From: Planctomycetota bacterium
GTDB taxonomy: Bacteria > Planctomycetota > MHYJ01 > JACQXL01 > JACQZI01
Assembly (NCBI GenBank): GCA_016207825.1
Contig: JACQZI010000017.1
Coordinates: 15,478-79,477 of the forward strand
DNA length: 64,000 nt
Direction of reading: 5' to 3'
Shown here piece after piece: positions 6,141 through 64,000 of this stretch (position 1 is its first letter; every line of letters starts with the position of its first letter). Both the position numbers and the translations under genes were made by a program. The notes under the pieces were generated by a model. That model was not told the origin of the DNA. It was given only the letters and a program-made list of their open reading frames with translations, and ran no database searches.

Positions 6141-6345
6141 CTCCACTCCTCCCTATGGACGGTTACTCCCTGCCGTATGAAGGGTCTATCCATACCGTAT
6201 AAACCATCCATCCCCGCCCAATAGAGGGTTACTCCATGCCGTACGAAACACTGCTCCCCGCCCTGCGGAATAACCATCCCCACCATACAGACCGCCCCTC
6301 CCTACCGTAGAAATACCCCATAGGGAGGGTGGGGATGGGGGGTAG
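6141..6345. repeat. 22-bp tandem repeat array (about 9 units; inverted copy of the array at 31962-32262)
   Basis: Periodic ggttactccctgccgtatgaag / ggtctatccataccgtataaac units, i.e. the reverse complement of ccgtacggtatgga. The terminal gtagggaggggcggtc matches the boundary of array 2. Confidence 0.8.
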
Positions 6346-6829
6346 TGGTCAGAGAGGTGGAAAATCGCCCCAATTTCTTATAAAACAAGGAGATACAACC
6401 CGGTGACTTCATAACATTCTTGTAAATATGGAGTTAGGCAGTCCGACGCATAAATTCACCATAAAAAGCGTTGTGGTTTTGCCATAAGAAGGGTGAAGGA
6501 AGACGGCGAACCACTAAGGATTCACCGCATGGAAATCGTAAAAATCTTCAAGGAAAAATAATTTTTCCATATAACCACCCCCCATACTTTCTAATTTGAT
6601 TATAGAGGGAGAGATAGTGAGGAAGGCTAAAAGGCTATGAGGCTAAGAGTAAGAAAATATGATAAATTTTAGGGGATTTATAAGATTTTATGTCACATTT
6701 AGCCTTTTTTGTCAATAGACTATGCAAGGGGATATGAAAATATGAAAAATTTTACCAAGAAAATGATTTTTCCTGTCAAAAGGGTGGGGGGTCAAACGCC
6801 TTATAGATAGAGGGGGAAATAAGAATATC

Positions 6830-6916
6830 ATGAATTTTACAGGAATTCCGATTTTTGGATGTCACATTCTGGGTTTTTCCGGGTTAGGTTATGGAAAGAG
6901 AAAGAAAGAAATATGA
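6830..6916 (+). CDS. short upstream ORF (28 aa, MNFTGIPIFGCHILGF...) whose stop overlaps the start of the following peptide gene
   Basis: ATG 6830 sits inside a conserved GGAATTCC-core element. The TGA at 6914-6916 overlaps ATG 6913-6915 (ATGA). I cannot tell whether it is translated. Confidence 0.3.
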   Translation: MNFTGIPIFGCHILGFSGLGYGKRKKEI

Positions 6917-7092
6917 AAAACGGATTAAATAAAGAATCAGTCAGATGGCCGTATCAGCAAAACGGAGGTGTCTGTGATAGCGTTGCGCGTCAGGTGTCAT
7001 GTGTTTGGCGCCAAGCACAGGATTCAGGACGTATGACGCCACGGGACGTTTTGCCGGCCAACTGGCGCTACATTTCGATTGGAGGTGAATAA
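6913..7092 (+). CDS. small Cys-rich peptide with PYQQNGG motif (copy 1 of duplicated cassette)
   Basis: MKNGLNKESVRWPYQQNGGVCDSVARQVSCVWRQ... is ~60% identical to the ORF at 63200. The start is chosen by alignment with the paralog. Confidence 0.55.
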   Translation: MKNGLNKESVRWPYQQNGGVCDSVARQVSCVWRQAQDSGRMTPRDVLPANWRYISIGGE

Positions 7093-7093
7093 A

Positions 7094-7888
7094 ATGAGTA
7101 CAATTAAAAGTCACGCGATGCTGATGATCGGCTGGCCACTGGATACGCCGGCGGATATGGGCGAAAAGTGGCTGGAAGGCATGAAAGCCAATGCGCTTCG
7201 TATCTACCAGAACATTTTAGCCAGAATTCCGGACAGCGGCAAGTTCCAGGAAAGGTTATCCGGTCCATCAAGCACGGGTTACGCGGGTTATGTGAATCCC
7301 GGTTTCGTTTCCAGAAGCGGAGACGAAAGTGGCGATATCCTGAACGGCCAGGTGGCAAACCTGCGGGATTCCTACGAGAAGTTCGTCCGGGGACTTGAAC
7401 ACGCCTTTGAAACCGTGGACGGGGTCGCTGCCAAGCGGTTCAAAGAGAAGGTGGAAAAGGCCAAGGAAAACTTCTTGGCGGGAATGGCCCGGCGCACGCT
7501 CATCTTCGGCGGAACAAGGGTAACGGGACGCGGCGCGGCGGCAATCGCCCCGCACTGGCTCGTGAATGACCTTCGGGTTATGGATTGGCTGAGAGCTGAC
7601 GACAAGGTGCTGGAAGGCGGACCCTTCAAGGTCTGCAAGACTTCCGACCGGTCGGCGTTCAAGGCGGCCCTGACCGAACGGCTCATCCAGGCGGGAATCC
7701 GGATTATCAAATCCGGGCTCTCCCATCCGGTTATCGACAAGGAGAACGACCAGACAAACGCGCTGGTGCAGAAGTTCATCGACCCTTCGCTGGGTCTTGA
7801 ATCTTTTGCCACCGGAGGATTATCCAGGCTTGATTTTATCAAGCAGGGTAACCGTTTGTTCCTGGAAATCCAGGTTTCACAAGTGTAG
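7094..7888 (+). CDS. conserved hypothetical protein, partner of the Cys-rich peptide (copy 1)
   Basis: GGAGG RBS then ATG 7094, 2 nt after the peptide stop. It shares ~35% identity over the central region (VDGVAAKRFK...GRGAAAIAPHW) with the ORF starting at 63385. Confidence 0.6.
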   Translation: MSTIKSHAMLMIGWPLDTPADMGEKWLEGMKANALRIYQNILARIPDSGKFQERLSGPSSTGYAGYVNPGFVSRSGDESGDILNGQVANLRDSYEKFVRGLEHAFETVDGVAAKRFKEKVEKAKENFLAGMARRTLIFGGTRVTGRGAAAIAPHWLVNDLRVMDWLRADDKVLEGGPFKVCKTSDRSAFKAALTERLIQAGIRIIKSGLSHPVIDKENDQTNALVQKFIDPSLGLESFATGGLSRLDFIKQGNRLFLEIQVSQV

Positions 7889-31961: not shown

Positions 31962-32262
31962 CTGTACGGTAGGGAAGGGCGTTCTGTACGGTGGGGAGAG
32001 GTACTCCGTACGGTATGGAAGCATACTCTGTACGGTCAGGAGCGGTATTCCGTACGGTATGGAGACACGCTCTATACGGTCAGGAGTGGTATTCCGTACG
32101 GTATGGAGGCACACTCTGTACGGTCGGGAGTGGTATTCCGTACGGTATGGAGGCATACTCTGTACGGTCGGTATGAGTATTCTGTACGGTCAGGAGAATG
32201 CACCTGATGGGTATGGAGAAGTATTCGCTTGGGTATCCGGGCACCTTCGCTATGGAATACTG
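31962..32262. repeat. 22-bp (44-bp higher-order) tandem repeat array, about 13 units
   Basis: Alternating ccgtacggtatggaggcatact and ctgtacggtcaggagtggtatt units that decay at the distal end. The gene-proximal boundary is cctacccaccct. Confidence 0.9.
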
Positions 32263-32284
32263 GGATTCTCCCTTGGGGAGGATA

Positions 32285-32460
32285 GTTTTTTTAACCTGAA
32301 CCGACCCTAGTATAGATTAATCCCACCTCTTGTATAGATTACTACCCGTCCTAGTATAGATTACAGCACCCTCTTATAAGGATTATATCCCCCTCTCGTA
32401 TAGATTATATCTACTACCCGCATAGATTGTACTATCCTATTACAGAATATACTCCACCTC
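32285..32460. repeat. degenerate ~23-bp tandem repeat with GTATAGATTA core (about 7 units)
   Basis: tagtatagatta / cgtatagatta / catagattgta units, immediately distal to array 2. Confidence 0.6.
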
Positions 32461-52920: not shown

Positions 52921-54024
52921 TTATTTCTTTATAAGTCCATCATACATTGCTTCCAATTCTTTAATCATCCTGGGATAGTTAAAAGATTCCTTTACCCGTT
53001 CATAGCCTTTTTGCCCCATTTTGTCCCTTAGTTCCTTGTTTTTAAGCAGTTTAATAATTGCTTGTGCTAAAGAACCGGAATCAGCCGGCGGCACTAAAAT
53101 TCCCGTAATACCGTTCGATACTACTTCAGGAATACCTCCAGCTTGAGTGGCAACGATAGCTTTTTTCATTGCCATGGCTTCCAAAAGAACTACCCCCAGC
53201 CCTTCGCTTAAAGAAGGTAATACGACTAAATCAAACAATGAAGTTAATTCAGAAATGTCGTTTCTCACGCCTAAAAACAAAATAGAATTAAACACGCCTG
53301 TTCCTTTAGCTTGTTTTTCCAATATATCTCTTAAATGACCTCTGCCAACAAATATGAATTTTACACTTGAGTACTCTTTTAAAACCAAAGGAATTGCTCT
53401 TATTAAATATCGATGCCCTTTAATGGAGGAAAGATTAGCTACCGTGCCAATCACAACTGAATCATCAGTAATTCCTAATGCCTGTTTCTTTTTTATCAAA
53501 GCTGCATTATTGACAACAAAATTATCTAAATCGATATTATTATATATTACATCTATTTTAGATGGGTTAATATTTGCTTTATCTGCAAAAGATGATTTTA
53601 CATATTTAGAAACAGCGATAGTTTTAGCGGTAAAACAGGAAATCATTTTTTCTGTAACTAACTCTGCTCTTGAACGTTTTTCAGTCGTATGATGCAATGT
53701 GGTAATTATTTCCGGGATACGCGCCAAAACAGCGGAAAGCCCGCCTATAACATTTGATGCCCAAAGATGAGTATGGACAATCTGAGTATGCTGTTTTCTC
53801 ATCAGCCAGGCCAATTTAAAGACTAGCCAAGGTTTCCATTTCCGCAGCCCTAAAACAACTACTTTTATTCCGGCATTTTCCACATCCGGAACTAATTCCC
53901 CTCCGCCAAACAGACAGCAAACCGTGATGTTATATTTAGTTTTATCCAGATGTTTAAGGGTATTAACAAAAATAGTTGGACCACCCATTCCTAAATCATC
54001 CACAACATACATTAAATTAATCAT
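52921..54024 (-). CDS. glycosyltransferase family 4 (group 1)
   Basis: GT-B fold with C-terminal EGLGVVLLEAMAM. Confidence 0.75.
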   Translation of the reverse strand: MINLMYVVDDLGMGGPTIFVNTLKHLDKTKYNITVCCLFGGGELVPDVENAGIKVVVLGLRKWKPWLVFKLAWLMRKQHTQIVHTHLWASNVIGGLSAVLARIPEIITTLHHTTEKRSRAELVTEKMISCFTAKTIAVSKYVKSSFADKANINPSKIDVIYNNIDLDNFVVNNAALIKKKQALGITDDSVVIGTVANLSSIKGHRYLIRAIPLVLKEYSSVKFIFVGRGHLRDILEKQAKGTGVFNSILFLGVRNDISELTSLFDLVVLPSLSEGLGVVLLEAMAMKKAIVATQAGGIPEVVSNGITGILVPPADSGSLAQAIIKLLKNKELRDKMGQKGYERVKESFNYPRMIKELEAMYDGLIKK

Positions 54025-59928: not shown

Positions 59929-60147
59929 ATATGATTTTATCGGGTTATCCCATAAGGAGCGTTAGGGATACTTGGCATAGAAAAATATCCCGCCTTGCGA
60001 CCAGAGGCTATAGTCCACGAAGTGGGAAGTCCCCGTAGGTGGCGGGGACGGCTAAAACGCATATATTCGTTTGCATCTCAATTAAATGAGGTTTCAAAGG
60101 CAGGGGGGTGGTGCTACTCCCCCCTCAACTTAGGGCTAACTACTCAT

Positions 60148-60409
60148 AAATACGGTGAGACCCCATCTCAAATGCGGAGGGACTCCATGGCAAATGCGGA
60201 GGGACTCCATCTTAAATGCGGTGATGCCCCATCTCAGATGCGGTGAGACCCCATCTCAAATGCAGAGAGACTCCATCTTAAATGCGGAGAGACCCCATCC
60301 CAAATGCGGAGGGACTCCATTCCAAATCCAGAGAGACCCCATCTTAAATGCGGAGAGGCTCCATGGCAAATGCGGTGGGACTCCATCTTAGATGCGGAGG
60401 GACTCCATG
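60148..60409. repeat. 22-bp tandem repeat array (about 12 units, consensus aaatgcggagggactccatctt)
   Basis: Head-to-tail units with no spacers. The sequence family differs from arrays 1 and 2 but the period is identical. Confidence 0.9.
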
Positions 60410-60564
60410 ATAGTAACGGTGGTATAGCCCTATCCAAAAATGAATTCCAGAAAACGAGACTTGCTTGCAGTGAGGAACGAATCCAACCGAATATAGGCGA
60501 TACACCACGGGAAAATCAAGCATTAGAAGATGTGGGAGGCGGTACGCTTTCGGATACCATTATA

Positions 60565-62427
60565 TTAATTAAAACTTTTGTTTATCTCTACAAATAGAGG
60601 GATAAAACTCTCGGAAGCCTTAACAGAGCCATTTAACAACGAATTAGCATAATGAATTGCGACACCATTTTTATTAAAGTCTTTAGATAATTTCAGTTTA
60701 AAGTACTGCATTAGTTTTCTTCCTAATGTCCAATTGCTATCGATGCTTAATGAGCAATCATTAAATTTATCAGGTGTTATAGGAGTAAACCAATCAAATC
60801 CCTGATAAAAATCATTTACTGATTTTATATAGATGTCTATGCCGACAAGGTCTTCTATTGATTCGTTTTGATTAGAAGAACCCGTAATTTGATTAATTTC
60901 AATAGTTGGAGTGTGGCATTTTTCAGCTACTTTAATCATATCTTTATTTCCATCATCGCTATCACATAGAACAATTGACTTTTTGTTCTGACTACTAGCC
61001 GTTTTCAGGAATGGTTCTAAAGCCGCACCATCGTTACATGGAATAATGCTTATTTTAGTTAAATCAAGATGCGTTTTCCCATTAGACTTAAAATAATCCG
61101 AAATATTAGCTAAAATTACCTGATCTGATATGCCCTCAACAAAAATATTCTGTTCTCCCAGAAAACCTAAATCGCCAAAGGAAACCCCAATAGACACTTT
61201 TAGAGGATCCCATATATTAAGAAATTTATTTTCATCCCTTGGCGCATAGGGCTTATTATCAATCTTAGTCGCTTTGGTTTTAGGATTTCTGGTAAACAAT
61301 CTAATCCGTTGCGGGAAATTCCAATCTATCATAAAAGGAGAATGGGTAGAATATGCAACTTGATGTTTCTGTGACAATTCATTTAGCATCTTTACAACAA
61401 TGCGTTGTGCGTTAGGATGCAAATTACAGGCTGGCTCATCAAATAAAACAATGGTCTGATTTTCTAATTTTTGGATAAACAAATATTCTATAACAAACGT
61501 TAAAAACCAATTGAGACCTGTCCCGTAATAGCGCAGTTTATTCTCGTCTCGTATCTGTGCTGTTAGAAGAAAACTATTTCTCTTGTAACTGGATTCTTTA
61601 CTGTGACTATTCCCCGCTAGCCTAATCTCGAAAGTAAGATCTGCAGGATCCCTCCACCACTTTTGCAAAACACCTGTTATTTTTTCAGATAATTCCTTTA
61701 ATTTTTGTTCTATTTCCTCTTGAGTAAGATTTAATGGCCTTAGCCGTGGTGAATTATGCTTCGTAGTTTCAGCCCACGGCGCATCTACATTGTGGTTTGC
61801 TCTAATGTTAGCTTTTAAATCTACAATTGAAAGCAGTAATTTTTCCGTAGTAAAAGGCATAAATTCACTAGGTTGATCAGATAGAGGGGTTTCTGTAATG
61901 CATGGACCTGTTTCATAAAATTGTGCTTCAAATAGTTCATTTAGTGCAACTTTTTCAGAAAGATTAATATATCTTATCTTTGGCAAAACAGATTGTTCAA
62001 AGTTTCTCATATCTTCTGTAATAGCCGGAAACTCTGTATTATCTTCATAGATATTGATATTTTCTGTATCGGCTAATAAAGAATATGATTGGTTTTTAGG
62101 TATATCCGAACGATGCTGATAACAAATTGTAATTAGTTTTGGTTTTTTATTCCCTAATAGTTGAGTGAACTTATCGTTTTTGATATCCTTATCTTCAACT
62201 ACCCACAATGAATTAAATCTTATACTGTTTGGATCTGCATTTTTTAACTGGCTTATATCCCAACCGGCCATGCCACCGTTTTTTATGTATTGGTCAAATA
62301 ATCGGTGAAGTATGCTCGTTTTTCCTGTATCATTCTTGCCAATAAGAACTGTTACATAAGGATCAAAAGATAAAGACTGATTTATAAAATGTCTAAATTG
62401 ATGTAGTTTTATTTCTTTTACTTTCAT
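60565..62427 (-). CDS. OLD-family ATP-dependent endonuclease (ABC-type ATPase + Toprim), standalone
   Basis: Walker A GKNDTGKTSIL, Walker B/D-loop VLFDEPACNLHP, H-loop STHSP, C-terminal Toprim (IFVEGISDQVIL ... VLCDSDDGN). The gene is AT-rich. Confidence 0.75.
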   Translation of the reverse strand: MKVKEIKLHQFRHFINQSLSFDPYVTVLIGKNDTGKTSILHRLFDQYIKNGGMAGWDISQLKNADPNSIRFNSLWVVEDKDIKNDKFTQLLGNKKPKLITICYQHRSDIPKNQSYSLLADTENINIYEDNTEFPAITEDMRNFEQSVLPKIRYINLSEKVALNELFEAQFYETGPCITETPLSDQPSEFMPFTTEKLLLSIVDLKANIRANHNVDAPWAETTKHNSPRLRPLNLTQEEIEQKLKELSEKITGVLQKWWRDPADLTFEIRLAGNSHSKESSYKRNSFLLTAQIRDENKLRYYGTGLNWFLTFVIEYLFIQKLENQTIVLFDEPACNLHPNAQRIVVKMLNELSQKHQVAYSTHSPFMIDWNFPQRIRLFTRNPKTKATKIDNKPYAPRDENKFLNIWDPLKVSIGVSFGDLGFLGEQNIFVEGISDQVILANISDYFKSNGKTHLDLTKISIIPCNDGAALEPFLKTASSQNKKSIVLCDSDDGNKDMIKVAEKCHTPTIEINQITGSSNQNESIEDLVGIDIYIKSVNDFYQGFDWFTPITPDKFNDCSLSIDSNWTLGRKLMQYFKLKLSKDFNKNGVAIHYANSLLNGSVKASESFIPLFVEINKSFN

Positions 62428-62654
62428 CTCAAGTTTTTCCTGTTAACAGTCACCGTCCTTTCAGTACTCAGTTTATTGTCATTAGAGCATATCACTTATC
62501 CCTAACGAGGTCAAGAGATAAAACCGAGACGACACAAACAAAGCTTAAAAGATTAATAGTTTCAGGATTAAAGGGAACAGGCAGTAAATGACCAGTTTCC
62601 AACCCCGATATTCATCGGGGCGGGTGAACAATGACCAATGAAAGAGGATGTAAA

Positions 62655-62807
62655 GATGAATATAAACGAGCTGGAGGAGAAATATGAGAAATTTTCATGG
62701 AATTCCAAGATTTTAGGTCAGATTTCACCTCCTCGTGCAAATAACACTATAGCTGGGGGCGGCAAGAAAGCCCGCCTAACGGCGAGGCAGGTAGTGAGCA
62801 GCGAGTA
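62655..62807 (+). CDS. hypothetical small ORF (50 aa)
   Basis: AGAGGA RBS. Preceded by the ccccgatattcatcgggg hairpin and overlapping a GGAATTCC-core element. Coding status uncertain. Confidence 0.2.
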
Positions 62808-62966
62808 GCGGGCAGTGAGGATGACGGGTAATGAGGATGCCGGAAAAGACCGGATATTTTTAAGATTCTTTGTTACTTTAGCCGGTTTTTGGACTGTATA
62901 AGTGGAGGGAAGGGTTAGAAATAACCAATTCCCAAATAACAATGACCAATTAAATAGAAAGGAAAT

Positions 62967-63035
62967 ATGAAGAATTTTAAAGGGATTCCGATTTTCCATG
63001 TAACATTCGGCGTTCCTGACCTATATACCTTATGA
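62967..63035 (+). CDS. short upstream ORF (22 aa, MKNFKGIPIFHVTF...)
   Basis: AAAGGA RBS. The first 14 codons are protein-level similar to the mini-ORF at 6663, with synonymous differences. Confidence 0.3.
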   Translation: MKNFKGIPIFHVTFGVPDLYTL

Positions 63036-63053
63036 AGGGAGGTAAGAGACAAA

Positions 63054-63197
63054 ATGATTAGGAGATTAAGAAAAATGATATATTTTCATAGAATTCCAAG
63101 ATTTTACCGCAAAAGGCAGGGGGGTCAAGCGAATAATAGTATGGAGGGACGGTGAACCACGAAGGGTTCACCGCAAGTATCCCTTAAATGGAGGTAA
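63054..63197 (+). CDS. short upstream ORF (47 aa, basic) ending 3 nt before the peptide gene start
   Basis: Strong GGGAGG RBS. It spans a GGAATTCC-core element and the conserved ggtgaacc...ggttcacc hairpin. Translation not established. Confidence 0.3.
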
Positions 63198-63199
63198 AT

Positions 63200-63388
63200 A
63201 TGAATATAAAGCGATTAAATAAGGAATTGTCAGTCAGCCGACCGTATCAGCAAGACGGAGGTGTCTGTAAAAGCGTTGTGTGCCAGGTGTCCTGCGTTTG
63301 GCGCCAGACGCAAGCCCCAAGACGTATGACGCAACAGGACGTTTTACCGGTTAGCTGGCGTAACAAGAAAGTGGGGATAGTTTTATGA
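63200..63388 (+). CDS. small Cys-rich peptide with PYQQDGG motif (copy 2 of duplicated cassette)
   Basis: GGAGG RBS. MNIKRLNKELSVSRPYQQDGGVCKSVVCQVSCVWRQ... is the paralog of 6913-7092. Confidence 0.6.
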   Translation: MNIKRLNKELSVSRPYQQDGGVCKSVVCQVSCVWRQTQAPRRMTQQDVLPVSWRNKKVGIVL

Positions 63389-64000
63389 CAAACATACTGT
63401 TTGATGTAAAGCTGGAAATACCTGCTTTGTACAAGCCTGCCGGCGATGTCGCCCAAAAGTGGGCGCAGAACCTGGCGGAGCAGGCGGAACTGGTGGAAAA
63501 CCGGCTTATGAAGGCATTGCCCGACGAAGCCAGTTTTCAGGAGAAGCTTGCCACTCCGGCCGCGGAGCAATGGCCCGCCTTTATGTCCGATACCTATCGG
63601 ACCAAAAGAGGCCGTGTTAAGCAGTCGGTAGTCAAGACCTTTGCCAAGAATATTCAGAACGCGTATGACAGCTGGGTGAAGCGTATCAGCCGCGTATTTG
63701 AAGTGACTGACGGGGTCAAGGCCAAAAGGTTCAAGGATGCAGTGCTTGATTCGCAGGAACGGGTTGCCGATGTCTTACGCAAGAAAGCCTTGCGTCTAAC
63801 CGGCGACCGGGTTCACGGAATCGGCGCGGCAGCCATTGCCTGTTTCTGGATGACCGGCGAGCCGACCATAGCGGGTAAACTGCGTCAGGGAGACCAATTG
63901 ATTGATGGTAATCCTTACCGGATTTGCCGGGAGGAGTTTATCCAGTCATTCAGGTCCGCCTTGATGAATCGCCTGATTCAAGCCGGGATGCTGATATCCA
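63385..64000 (+). CDS. conserved hypothetical protein, partner of the Cys-rich peptide (copy 2; 3' end outside window)
   Basis: ATGA overlap with the peptide stop. Paralog of 7094-7888 (TDGVKAKRFK...GIGAAAIACFW). The frame stays open to the window end. Confidence 0.6.
   Translation, partial: MTNILFDVKLEIPALYKPAGDVAQKWAQNLAEQAELVENRLMKALPDEASFQEKLATPAAEQWPAFMSDTYRTKRGRVKQSVVKTFAKNIQNAYDSWVKRISRVFEVTDGVKAKRFKDAVLDSQERVADVLRKKALRLTGDRVHGIGAAAIACFWMTGEPTIAGKLRQGDQLIDGNPYRICREEFIQSFRSALMNRLIQAGMLIS

Follow-up and report, generated by a model that had tools for sequence, protein, structure and literature searches.

The locus lies in a stretch of 64,000 nucleotides of a Planctomycetota contig (hereafter, the window), in which an ATG-initiated open reading frame runs from 62427 to 60565 on the minus strand and constitutes a complete gene of 620 codons plus stop. 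The preliminary description of this DNA had placed the gene correctly at 60565-62427, and the strand is added here. The identical deposited protein is annotated as 'AAA family ATPase' of 'Planctomycetes bacterium', and its N-terminus lines up with the starts of its homologues in an alignment of the clade to which it belongs. Pfam recognizes AAA_15 across residues 1-367 (84.3 bits, cutoff 32.1) and OLD-like_TOPRIM across residues 424-491 (29.2 bits, cutoff 23.2). Motif conservation was scored in a clade alignment of 35 sequences, and the resulting features are as follows.

60565..62427, minus strand: OLD-family gene (open reading frame with AAA_15 and OLD-like_TOPRIM matches; identical protein deposited)
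62486..62514, minus strand: candidate promoter of the sigma-70 type, TTGACC-17-TATGCT plus an upstream TG, lying 59 nt before the ATG (consensus scan)
62436-62441, minus strand: possible Shine-Dalgarno-like element AGGAAA (read from the sequence; weak evidence)
61288..62427, minus strand: ABC/SMC-type ATPase head, residues 1 to ~380, with an insertion of ~250 residues between Walker A and the signature motif
62317..62340, minus strand: Walker A (P-loop) GKNDTGKT, residues 30-37; G30, N32, G35 and K36 invariant in the 35 sequences
61516..61524, minus strand: signature-like G-T-G, residues 302-304; G304 invariant and G302 nearly so in the same alignment
61435..61452, minus strand: Walker B IVLFDE, residues 326-331; D330 and E331 invariant, followed by an invariant LHP/AQ D-loop region
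61336..61350, minus strand: H-loop STHSP, residues 360-364; T361, H362, S363 and P364 invariant
60850..61158, minus strand: Toprim nuclease core, residues 424-526 (Pfam OLD-like_TOPRIM and profile alignment to Ts OLD)
60568..60849, minus strand: clade-specific C-terminal helical tail, residues 527-620 (helices from AF2 models)

The ATPase-Toprim architecture of the OLD family proposed in the preliminary description—Walker A, Walker B, H-loop and a Toprim glutamate with DxD—is borne out by both Pfam and the alignments. The P-loop aligns to those of Ts OLD and PtuA, the signature-like G-T-G aligns with 'GLG' of Ts OLD and 'GHG' of P2 Old, and L336, H337, P338, A340 and Q341 are invariant in the D-loop region that follows Walker B. 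The insertion in the ATPase head is predicted by the AF2 model, without superposition, to be mostly β-strand, with helices at residues 236-257 and 274-283. Within the Toprim core and beyond it, E431, D489-x-D491, E525-D526 and K586 are invariant across the 35 sequences. The clade profile aligns E431/D435 to E377/D381 of Ts OLD and D489/D491 to D431/D433 of the same enzyme, the catalytic residues of which have been assigned roles (PMC7049728). By motif pattern, S523-x-E525 would be the counterpart of S478-x-E480 in Ts OLD; the putative ligands are E431, D489 and D491 for metal A and D435, S523 and E525 for metal B. Judged from the sequence, all catalytic motifs are intact. The AF2 models predict five helices for the tail (residues 527-620), which also carries K586 (codon 60670-60672), the only invariant basic residue past the DxD motif in the 35 sequences. 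This lysine sits at +61 relative to E525, and no basic residue is conserved near +7, the position of R487 in Ts OLD. A Foldseek search of the C-terminal model against the PDB retrieved no solved structural analogue of residues 527-620. Upstream of the gene, the number of sigma-70-type sites in the region, including the candidate promoter listed above, does not exceed the expectation from shuffled sequence.

The clade is rare and divergent, comprising ~45 proteins that are 31-48% identical; its members occur in 4 of 185,579 species-representative genomes, which belong to unrelated phyla, and the nearest homologue among 5.8 billion proteins is 47% identical. Searches of IMG/VR, GenBank phages and PLSDB plasmids returned no clade members, just distant OLD proteins at 22-29% identity. 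Seven homologue neighbourhoods contained no recurring partner, helicase or reverse transcriptase, and the annotated genes differed each time. Moreover, an all-against-all BLAST of open reading frames of at least 70 aa within 6 kb (E ≤ 1e-5) across nine distinct clade loci and the window revealed no shared neighbouring frame, except between two copies of one Binatia locus. Neither a UvrD-like helicase nor a reverse transcriptase or AriB was a shared neighbour across the nine loci. Elsewhere, homologues adjoin HipA/HIRAN, AbiEi/AbiEii with DUF4011, Cas3/HTH, ParE/resolvase or Fic genes.

The base composition of the gene sets it apart from its surroundings, as had been suggested when acquisition was first considered. 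With a GC content of 0.332 and a GC3 of 0.261 (z-score of -2.3), it is the lowest of 48 long open reading frames in a window averaging 0.434, and lies 0.114 below its own flanks. Of all stretches in the window, the 2-kb one from 60501 deviates most in tetranucleotide usage (L1 distance of 0.396 vs a mean of 0.248, with a standard deviation of 0.038). A codon log-likelihood computed against the pooled genes of the window lacked discriminating power; given the bimodal composition of the window, we relied on GC3 and tetranucleotide distance. The AT richness extends across the clade, with the OLD gene falling below flank GC in 10 of 10 clade loci as well as in the window. Several genes of the neighbouring polysaccharide cluster are nearly as AT-rich (e.g., 52921-54024, GC 0.362), and the OLD gene is therefore not alone within the window in its low GC. 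The homologue record also differs from that of the flank: against the 47% of the nearest OLD homologue, relatives of the flanking methyltransferase reach 88% and 61% identity. The 61% relative has SpoIID rather than an OLD gene at the corresponding position. Neither of the observations that the preliminary description named as grounds for refutation, average composition and syntenic conservation, is borne out. The contig with the 88% relative (L091) is uninformative on synteny, since it stops 174 bp upstream of the gene and is divergent beyond ~70 bp. Around the low-GC block, neither convincing bracketing direct or inverted repeats nor an integrase, target-site duplication or inverted-repeat scar could be found. 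An exact 14-nt repeat, AAAGGCAGGGGGGT, occurs at 60096 and 63112 and brackets the array, the OLD gene and the motif chain described below, and was rejected as a target-site duplication of the OLD gene, being a member of the cassette repeat family. We conclude that the Planctomycetota host most likely acquired the OLD gene horizontally.

The surroundings bear on whether the gene acts by itself. Directly downstream lies a 22-bp tandem array of ~12 copies (60148-60408), which ends 157 bp beyond the stop codon and is followed by a SAM methyltransferase, a flippase and glycosyltransferases. The methyltransferase heads an 11-kb polysaccharide-biosynthesis cluster that forms the left flank. On the other side, a cassette of a small ORF and a partner ORF begins near 62680 and is paralogous to 6650-7888, its motif chain starting ~250 bp upstream of the OLD start; the OLD gene and the cassette are divergently transcribed from a common intergenic region. 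Both neighbours named in the preliminary description, array 3 and the peptide-partner cassette, are thus real. A CRISPR or structured-RNA reading of the array and small ORF was discarded, as the 22-bp period has no spacers and no Rfam match was obtained. The array-plus-cassette module is the less explained feature of the region, and no evidence ties it to the OLD gene.

Adjacency on both sides and the divergent intergenic region would be expected if the OLD protein were one component of a system with the array and cassette, and a defence island of this kind, including the small-ORF chain, had indeed been suggested. This proposal did not withstand comparison with other copies of its parts. The first copy of the module in the window retains the same order (array at ~6150-6300, motifs, small ORF, partner at 6650-7888) and has no OLD gene, with an array-to-motif gap of ~350 bp vs ~2270 bp at the OLD locus. 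Eight metagenome loci of the partner family likewise have no OLD gene, including two (L093 and L095) with 2.4-3.3 kb of upstream sequence, in which a trypsin-like peptidase stands in its place; conversely, the nine clade loci contain neither a cassette homologue nor a comparable multi-copy array. The cassette proteins have no match in Pfam, PADLOC or PHROGs, the region has none in Rfam, and GC contrasts between the OLD frame (0.33) and the partner frame (0.50-0.57). Additionally, the left flank is devoted to polysaccharide biosynthesis, and no clustering with recognised defence genes was seen at the OLD locus; island context lends no support here, because no other recognisable defence gene occurs in the neighbourhood within the window. 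The missing co-occurrence largely refutes a multi-gene system, which we regard as highly improbable. An assembly artefact, in which a 2.3-kb OLD segment from another replicon or organism was joined through repeats, carries the same very low probability. Two samples assembled from short reads yield a separate 2.29-kb contig for the OLD gene (window 60397-62685) and methyltransferase contigs that reach no further than 60156, leaving a stretch of the array (60157-60396) that no contig bridges; GC also changes abruptly at the segment. However, the non-coding ends of that contig are host-like (GC 0.44 and 0.40). Its left end enters the last copy of array 3, the unit of which is found nowhere else in the window, and its right end holds motifs D3 and D4, paralogous to cassette sequences at 62938-62971 and 63190-63210. 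The OLD and methyltransferase contigs co-occur in SRR12113402 and SRR12113406, and the deposited MAG contig (97,993 bp) spans the junctions.

Membership of the OLD family follows from an N-terminal ABC-type ATPase head that has both Walker motifs, a signature-like motif and an H-loop, from a C-terminal Toprim domain with Glu and DxD, and from homology to P2 Old, the founder (hhalign probability of 95.6% with E 1.1e-8 over 186 columns; 26% BLASTP identity over 187 aa, E 6e-8). Ts OLD (6P74) is the best PDB match to the single sequence, the best for the clade profile at 67.5 bits—and the sole one aligned through the Toprim core—and the best Foldseek match to the full-length model (E 1e-14). PADLOC matches are generic, with AriA, Old, PtuA and GajA models scoring alike and AriA ranking highest (86.5 bits, residues 1-367). 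Class 1 OLD genes are defined as single, isolated genes (PMC7049728, PMC10568477). The gene studied here is Class 1 by this genomic-context definition, because no neighbouring gene is common to nine independent clade loci; the window itself agrees. Its 620 aa exceed the 500-600 aa range given for Class 1 (PMC12392090), a soft and descriptive criterion, and aligned full-length clade sequences span 566-628 aa. For Class 3 (retron type I-B), the flanking frames of the window and the homologue loci contain no reverse transcriptase domain, and a scan of the whole window yields no Rfam family at gathering score, leaving no match to an msr/msd ncRNA. A Class 4 or fused PARIS protein was rejected, since the PADLOC matches of residues 381-620 are limited to weak ones with GajA Toprim models and include none with AriB, and Pfam gives OLD-like_TOPRIM instead of DUF4435.

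An orphaned Class 2 protein of the Gabija GajA type, or a hybrid whose helical C-terminal domain supplies the catalytic lysine while the helicase is lost or unneeded, would account for the length of the protein, longer than is typical of Class 1, and for several features of the tail. The model places six helices after S523/E525 with K586 opening the fifth, and in Bp OLD the residues past T506/E508 form a bundle of five helices and a further C-terminal one, K562 lying on helix 5 (PMC6755086); the lysine spacing is +61 here vs +54 in Bp OLD, and the sole HMMs matched by the C-terminal fragment in PADLOC are those of GajA Toprim. These PADLOC matches are nevertheless confined to the Toprim core (residues 422-526), and the clade profile scores 67.5 bits against Ts OLD vs 37.7 bits against GajA, the latter through the N-terminus only. 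The C-terminal model (residues 415-620, pLDDT 93.5) retrieved no Class 2 structure, the Foldseek top 50 containing neither a GajA chain nor a Class 2 CTR, and a Class-2-like helical domain bearing K586 is therefore not supported; the only OLD match of this model is the Class 1 Ts OLD (E 0.05, TMq 0.40). P2 Old, a Class 1 protein, also has ~130 residues past its DxD, and a long tail is therefore no hallmark of Class 2. A UvrD-like helicase is absent beside the gene and in nine of nine independent clade loci, in agreement with the earlier statement that the gene is not Gabija-like. On balance, an orphaned or hybrid Class 2 origin appears improbable. A related proposal, in which the clade is a helicase-independent OLD lineage that draws K586 from a C-terminal helical module as in Class 2 instead of from a Ts-type post-Toprim loop, is unlikely; if true, it would bridge Class 1 and Class 2 structurally, and the context-based classes would not map onto catalytic architecture. 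Finally, ATPases of the SMC/Rad50/RecF type and the archaeal OLD Cran1 exemplify cellular roles, e.g., in DNA repair or the cell cycle, which the protein might share. Conservation and compositional amelioration would be expected of a core housekeeping gene, yet the distribution is very patchy (4 of 185,579 species), no orthologue exceeds 47% identity although host relatives exist, the gene is AT-richer than its flanks at every locus, and homologues often lie beside toxin-antitoxin, Abi or mobile-element genes. We consider a non-defence role very improbable.

Taken together, we favour, with a probability of roughly 0.7, a functional single-gene OLD nuclease, Class 1 by context, that belongs to a rare and divergent clade, was horizontally acquired and serves as an anti-phage or abortive-infection effector. 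The effector role, assigned by analogy, is the most likely one. The ABC/SMC-type head would bind ATP through K36 of Walker A, D330/E331 of Walker B and H362, and would probably dimerise, coupling a phage-derived signal to the C-terminal Toprim domain. This domain may then cut phosphodiester bonds by a two-metal mechanism, with E431/D489/D491 holding metal A, D435/S523/E525 holding metal B and K586 as a candidate transition-state residue. The substrate could be either DNA, by nicking or 5'-3' degradation as for Ts OLD and Vc OLD, or the anticodon stem of a host tRNA as for P2 Old. Precedents include Vc OLD, a DNA nickase that defends alone (PMC12392090), P2 Old, which cleaves tRNA anticodon stems (PMC12445682), and YbjD/OldB, with anti-phage phenotypes (PMC13261556).

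The finding carries OLD defence into Planctomycetota and further phyla that have received little study, for a gene currently annotated only as an ATPase. Single-gene (Class 1) OLD systems are rare, being reported in ~0.45% of genomes, and few have been studied—P2 Old, Ts OLD, Vc OLD and YbjD—with activities ranging from DNA degradation and nicking to tRNA cleavage. The clade, with its invariant catalytic residues, distinctive tail and K586, offers a new comparison point for ATPase control of Toprim. It refines the existing picture and opens no new one: the protein is a divergent yet ordinary member of the OLD family, showing no link to the adjoining array and cassette.

Among known systems, Ts OLD, the solved Class 1 prototype, shares the single-gene organization, the ABC head with an insertion and the C-terminal Toprim domain, although identity is only 15-19% and the lengths differ (528 aa vs 620 aa). 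Where Ts OLD has R487 (+7 after S-x-E), the protein described here has no basic residue; it also has an extra helical tail of ~95 residues with the invariant K586. The Ts OLD insertion forms a four-helix dimerisation domain, whereas the insertion here, not superposed on it, is predicted to be mainly strand plus two helices. P2 Old, the Class 1 founder, is homologous from the signature motif through Walker B, H-loop, Toprim Glu and DxD, and is likewise a single gene for defence. It differs in being prophage-borne, whereas searches of viral, phage and plasmid collections found no member of the clade, and in C-terminal topology, its IE motif lying ~86 residues past the DxD vs 32 here; the tRNA-Thr specificity of P2 Old (PMC12445682) is not transferable to the clade. 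GajA and Bp OLD (Class 2) belong to the same ATPase-Toprim family (full-length Foldseek E ~1e-12 to 1e-13), with a similar number of helices after metal B and a similar position of the conserved lysine, but Gabija includes GajB, the UvrD-like helicase. PARIS AriA (Class 4) has an AAA_15-type head in common, and the C-terminal half of the protein described here differs in having no AriB/DUF4435 match. Retron-Eco8 OLD (Class 3) ranks among the top structural matches, although the reverse transcriptase of that system is absent near the OLD gene and from the clade loci. Vc OLD is a nickase and the Toprim domain of YbjD is dispensable; the substrate of the clade is not predictable, because these two mechanisms differ from each other. 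Likened by description, Vc OLD and E. coli YbjD/OldB are chromosomal, isolated Class 1 proteins that act alone (PMC12392090, PMC13261556), and they provide the functional model adopted here.

The OLD gene encodes an ATPase-Toprim protein that we assign, by analogy with characterized relatives, as a probable single-gene anti-phage nuclease; it is a new, divergent member of the already known OLD family. The preliminary description had placed the ORF exactly, and we provide its candidate expression signals alongside:

62427 down to 60565, minus strand: OLD ORF (ORF call), 620 aa
8 nt before the OLD ATG, minus strand: Shine-Dalgarno-like AGGAAA, read from the sequence
62514-62486, minus strand: weak sigma-70-like promoter candidate (consensus scan)

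The ATPase-Toprim architecture proposed earlier was confirmed by Pfam, which assigned residues 1-367 to AAA_15 (84.3 bits) and residues 424-491 to OLD-like_TOPRIM (29.2 bits vs. a cutoff of 23.2), with the catalytic motifs intact. NCBIfam returned no specific match to the protein, and the best PADLOC HMMs—AriA, Old, PtuA and GajA—scored alike because of generic ATPase-head similarity. A search of 5.8 billion proteins retrieved a single identical sequence, deposited as 'AAA family ATPase [Planctomycetes bacterium]' and located on a 97,993-bp MAG contig, with the next-best matches at 47%, 44% and 41% identity. The resulting clade comprises ~45 proteins, mostly of ~600 aa, which match the window protein at 32-47% identity across most of their length. 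In an alignment of 35 clade sequences (31-48% identity to the window protein), all expected catalytic positions were invariant or nearly so.

Conserved positions in the 35-sequence clade alignment
Walker A: G30, G35, K36 (invariant)
Signature-like motif: G302 (nearly invariant), G304
Walker B: D330-E331
D-loop region: LHPxAQ
H-loop: T361-H362-S363-P364
Toprim: E431-G432, D435 (nearly invariant), D489-x-D491, E525-D526
Single distal lysine: K586

Such conservation shows an intact gene under purifying selection, not a decaying remnant. A clade-related protein of 687 aa (P0029, 42% identical across 66% of the query) has a precomputed Phage_integrase match (PF00589) besides AAA_15 and OLD-like_TOPRIM, which could reflect a fusion made in gene calling or a genuine connection with a tyrosine recombinase or mobile element.

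Published OLD classes rest on genomic context: an isolated gene in Class 1, an adjacent UvrD-like helicase in Class 2 (Gabija), a retron RT with its ncRNA in Class 3 and PARIS AriA/AriB in Class 4 (PMC7049728, PMC10568477, PMC12392090). Downstream of the OLD gene lie a 22-bp array and a SAM methyltransferase heading an 11-kb polysaccharide cluster; upstream is a divergently transcribed cassette without assigned function. Seven homologue neighbourhoods all had different neighbours (HipA/HIRAN; AbiEi/AbiEii with DUF4011; Cas3/HTH; ParE/resolvase; Fic; DUF4238; plain metabolic genes). When the neighbouring ORFs of the window and of nine independent clade loci were compared all against all by BLAST, none proved to be common, the only matches joining the two copies of a single Binatia locus. 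AriB models did not match the C-terminal half of the protein alone, and no Rfam family was detected in the window. The gene is therefore Class 1 by context, in agreement with the preliminary description.

That description had also raised the possibility of a defence island shared with the cassette, which belongs to a module present twice in the window, the stretch from 62680 to the window end (copy 2) being paralogous to 6650-7888 (copy 1); with all arrays included, the repeated elements cover 6150-7888, 31983-32411, 60058-60499 and 62627-64000:

~6150-6300 (array 1), 31983-32226 with 32305-32411, and 60148-60408 (array 3): degenerate tandem arrays, period ~22 bp
After array 1 and after array 3, plus strand: ~38-nt motif AGAAATATGAnAAATTTTCATGGAATTCCAAGATTTTA, three copies each
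6913-7092 and 63188-63388, plus strand: small ORF of copies 1 and 2, 59-66 aa
7094-7888 and 63385 to window end, plus strand: partner ORF, ~265 aa, overlapping the small ORF, GC ~0.55

Both copies run in the order array, motif chain, small ORF and partner ORF. The small ORFs share 79% DNA identity (6909-7067 vs. 63196-63360) and the partner ORFs 29% amino acid identity. Substitutions in the small ORF number 7/6/13 by codon position, a mild third-position excess only. It could encode a peptide, serve as a leader or be an RNA or DNA element; its counterpart in other metagenome loci is apparently fused in frame to the partner N-terminus and starts MAGIVPI(N/Q)..Y(D/E)F. The array-to-motif gap measures ~350 bp in copy 1 vs. 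~2270 bp in copy 2, a difference accounted for by the OLD gene, which looks to have been inserted into a pre-existing array-cassette module. No OLD gene was found beside copy 1 or in eight partner-family metagenome loci, two of which (L093 and L095) carry a trypsin-like peptidase in its place on the upstream side, and the clade loci contained neither a cassette homologue nor a comparable multi-copy array. The shared island is thus unsupported, and OLD gene, array and cassette do not look like a functional unit; the cassette may instead belong to a protease-associated rather than nuclease-associated system. In the closest partner-family loci (L093:1350-3221 and L095:1765-2673, 60-63% identity), Trypsin_2 (Pfam) lies directly upstream of the small region and partner, with a TPR protein also close by in L095. 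The cassette proteins matched nothing in Pfam, PADLOC or PHROGs, and the module no Rfam family. A 19-nt inverted repeat (84% complementary, 60058-60076/60481-60499) brackets array 3, and AAAGGCAGGGGGGT, a 14-nt direct repeat with exact copies, is found shortly before this array (60096-60109) and a second time in the cassette motif chain (63112-63125), with the similar GGGGGGTCAA in cassette 1 near 6780.

This arrangement would be an artefact if assembly had misplaced the OLD segment. Short-read assemblies of two samples place the gene alone on a 2.29-kb contig (window 60397-62685) and end the methyltransferase contigs at 60156, so the junction rests on bridging ~240 bp of tandem array. Yet the left end of the OLD contig enters the last unit of array 3, an array whose repeat unit is found nowhere else in the window, its right end holds cassette-type motifs (D3, D4), and OLD and methyltransferase contigs co-occur in the same two samples—all of which argues against a chimera. 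In the Logan short-read assemblies of SRR12113402, SRR12113405 and SRR12113406, contigs stop precisely at array 3 and at the first cassette motif, and the array interior (60157-60396) is therefore backed by the MAG assembly alone.

The foreign composition noted in the preliminary description was borne out. Among 48 long window ORFs, the OLD ORF has the lowest GC (0.332) and GC3 (0.261; z-score -2.3), and it sits in the most tetranucleotide-deviant 2-kb stretch. GC falls from ~0.52 to ~0.32 around 60,480 and rises again around 62,600; since the short non-coding pieces flanking the ORF have host-like GC (0.44 and 0.40), the anomaly is that of the coding sequence. At each of the 10 clade loci examined, the OLD gene lay 0.03-0.14 below its ±5 kb flanks in GC. 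The three closest relatives have a GC of 0.29-0.37 whatever that of their flanks (0.34-0.51), which suggests a sub-lineage keeping an AT-rich signature while moving between hosts. The clade occurs in only 4 of 185,579 GTDB species representatives (labelled as a delta proteobacterium, Binatia, Methylomirabilia and one unclassified bacterium). For the OLD protein no relative exceeds 47% identity, against 88% and 61% for relatives of the flanking methyltransferase; at the position corresponding to OLD, SpoIID is found in the 61% relative, and the contig of the 88% relative is too short to show this position. Neither average composition nor conserved synteny, the observations that would have spoken against the acquisition proposed earlier, was thus seen. 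No insertion scar or integrase was found at the window gene, nor clade copies in phage or plasmid collections. The whole window is bimodal in GC3, with ~0.53-0.65 at 1-15 and 26-44 kb, and ~0.34-0.45 at 16-26 kb (type IV pilus-like cluster) and 45-56 kb (polysaccharide cluster); the two partner ORFs are its GC-richest genes (7079-7888, GC3 0.68).

Ts OLD (6P74), the solved Class 1 enzyme, was the best PDB match by three routes: in the single-sequence search (E 1.8e-8), with the clade profile (67.5 bits) and in Foldseek with a full-length AlphaFold model (E 1e-14; pLDDT 87.5, pTM 0.88). Of the clade-profile alignments, only that with Ts OLD continues across the Toprim core, where E431/D435 fall on Ts E377/D381 and D489/D491 on Ts D431/D433. 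GajA and Retron-Eco8 OLD followed closely in Foldseek, and global TM-scores were all 0.31-0.38 because relative domain orientations differ; the predicted fold assigns family, not class. Two descriptive Class 1 traits are lacking: at 620 aa, the protein falls outside the 500-600 aa range used for that class, and the clade, unlike Ts OLD with R487, has no conserved basic residue at the equivalent position.

In Bp OLD (Class 2), a helical domain—a five-helix bundle plus a C-terminal helix, with catalytic K562 on helix 5—follows the metal-B ligands T506/E508 (PMC6755086). Our model has six helices after S523/E525, with invariant K586 starting the fifth, a resemblance that hinted at a catalytic module of Class 2 type within a Class 1 setting. 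This idea was not supported: residues 415-620 modelled alone (pLDDT 93.5, pTM 0.89) gave no PDB match at E 1e-3 in Foldseek, and among the top 50 matches there was neither a C-terminal structure of a Class 2 enzyme nor a chain of GajA, Ts OLD being the sole OLD (rank 36, E 0.05, TMq 0.40), with small Toprim domains aligned to the core only. The tail is best described as clade-specific, and K586 may have a catalytic role. The P2 Old sequence from the annotated phage record aligned with the clade profile from the signature motif to DxD (hhalign probability 95.6%, 186 columns); P2 Old too has ~130 residues beyond DxD, arranged unlike those of the window protein, so long, variable C-termini are normal in Class 1.

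By analogy with these enzymes, the ATPase head would bind or hydrolyse ATP and, once a phage cue is sensed, would gate a two-metal Toprim nuclease. DNA would be a somewhat likelier substrate than tRNA. Characterized Class 1 enzymes differ in action: Ts OLD degrades and nicks DNA (PMC7049728), Vc OLD is limited to nicking DNA and stops phages from replicating (PMC12392090), P2 Old cuts tRNA anticodon stems (PMC12445682) and the anti-phage phenotype of YbjD is independent of its Toprim (PMC13261556). We therefore keep the functional reading at the level of a single-gene anti-phage nuclease.
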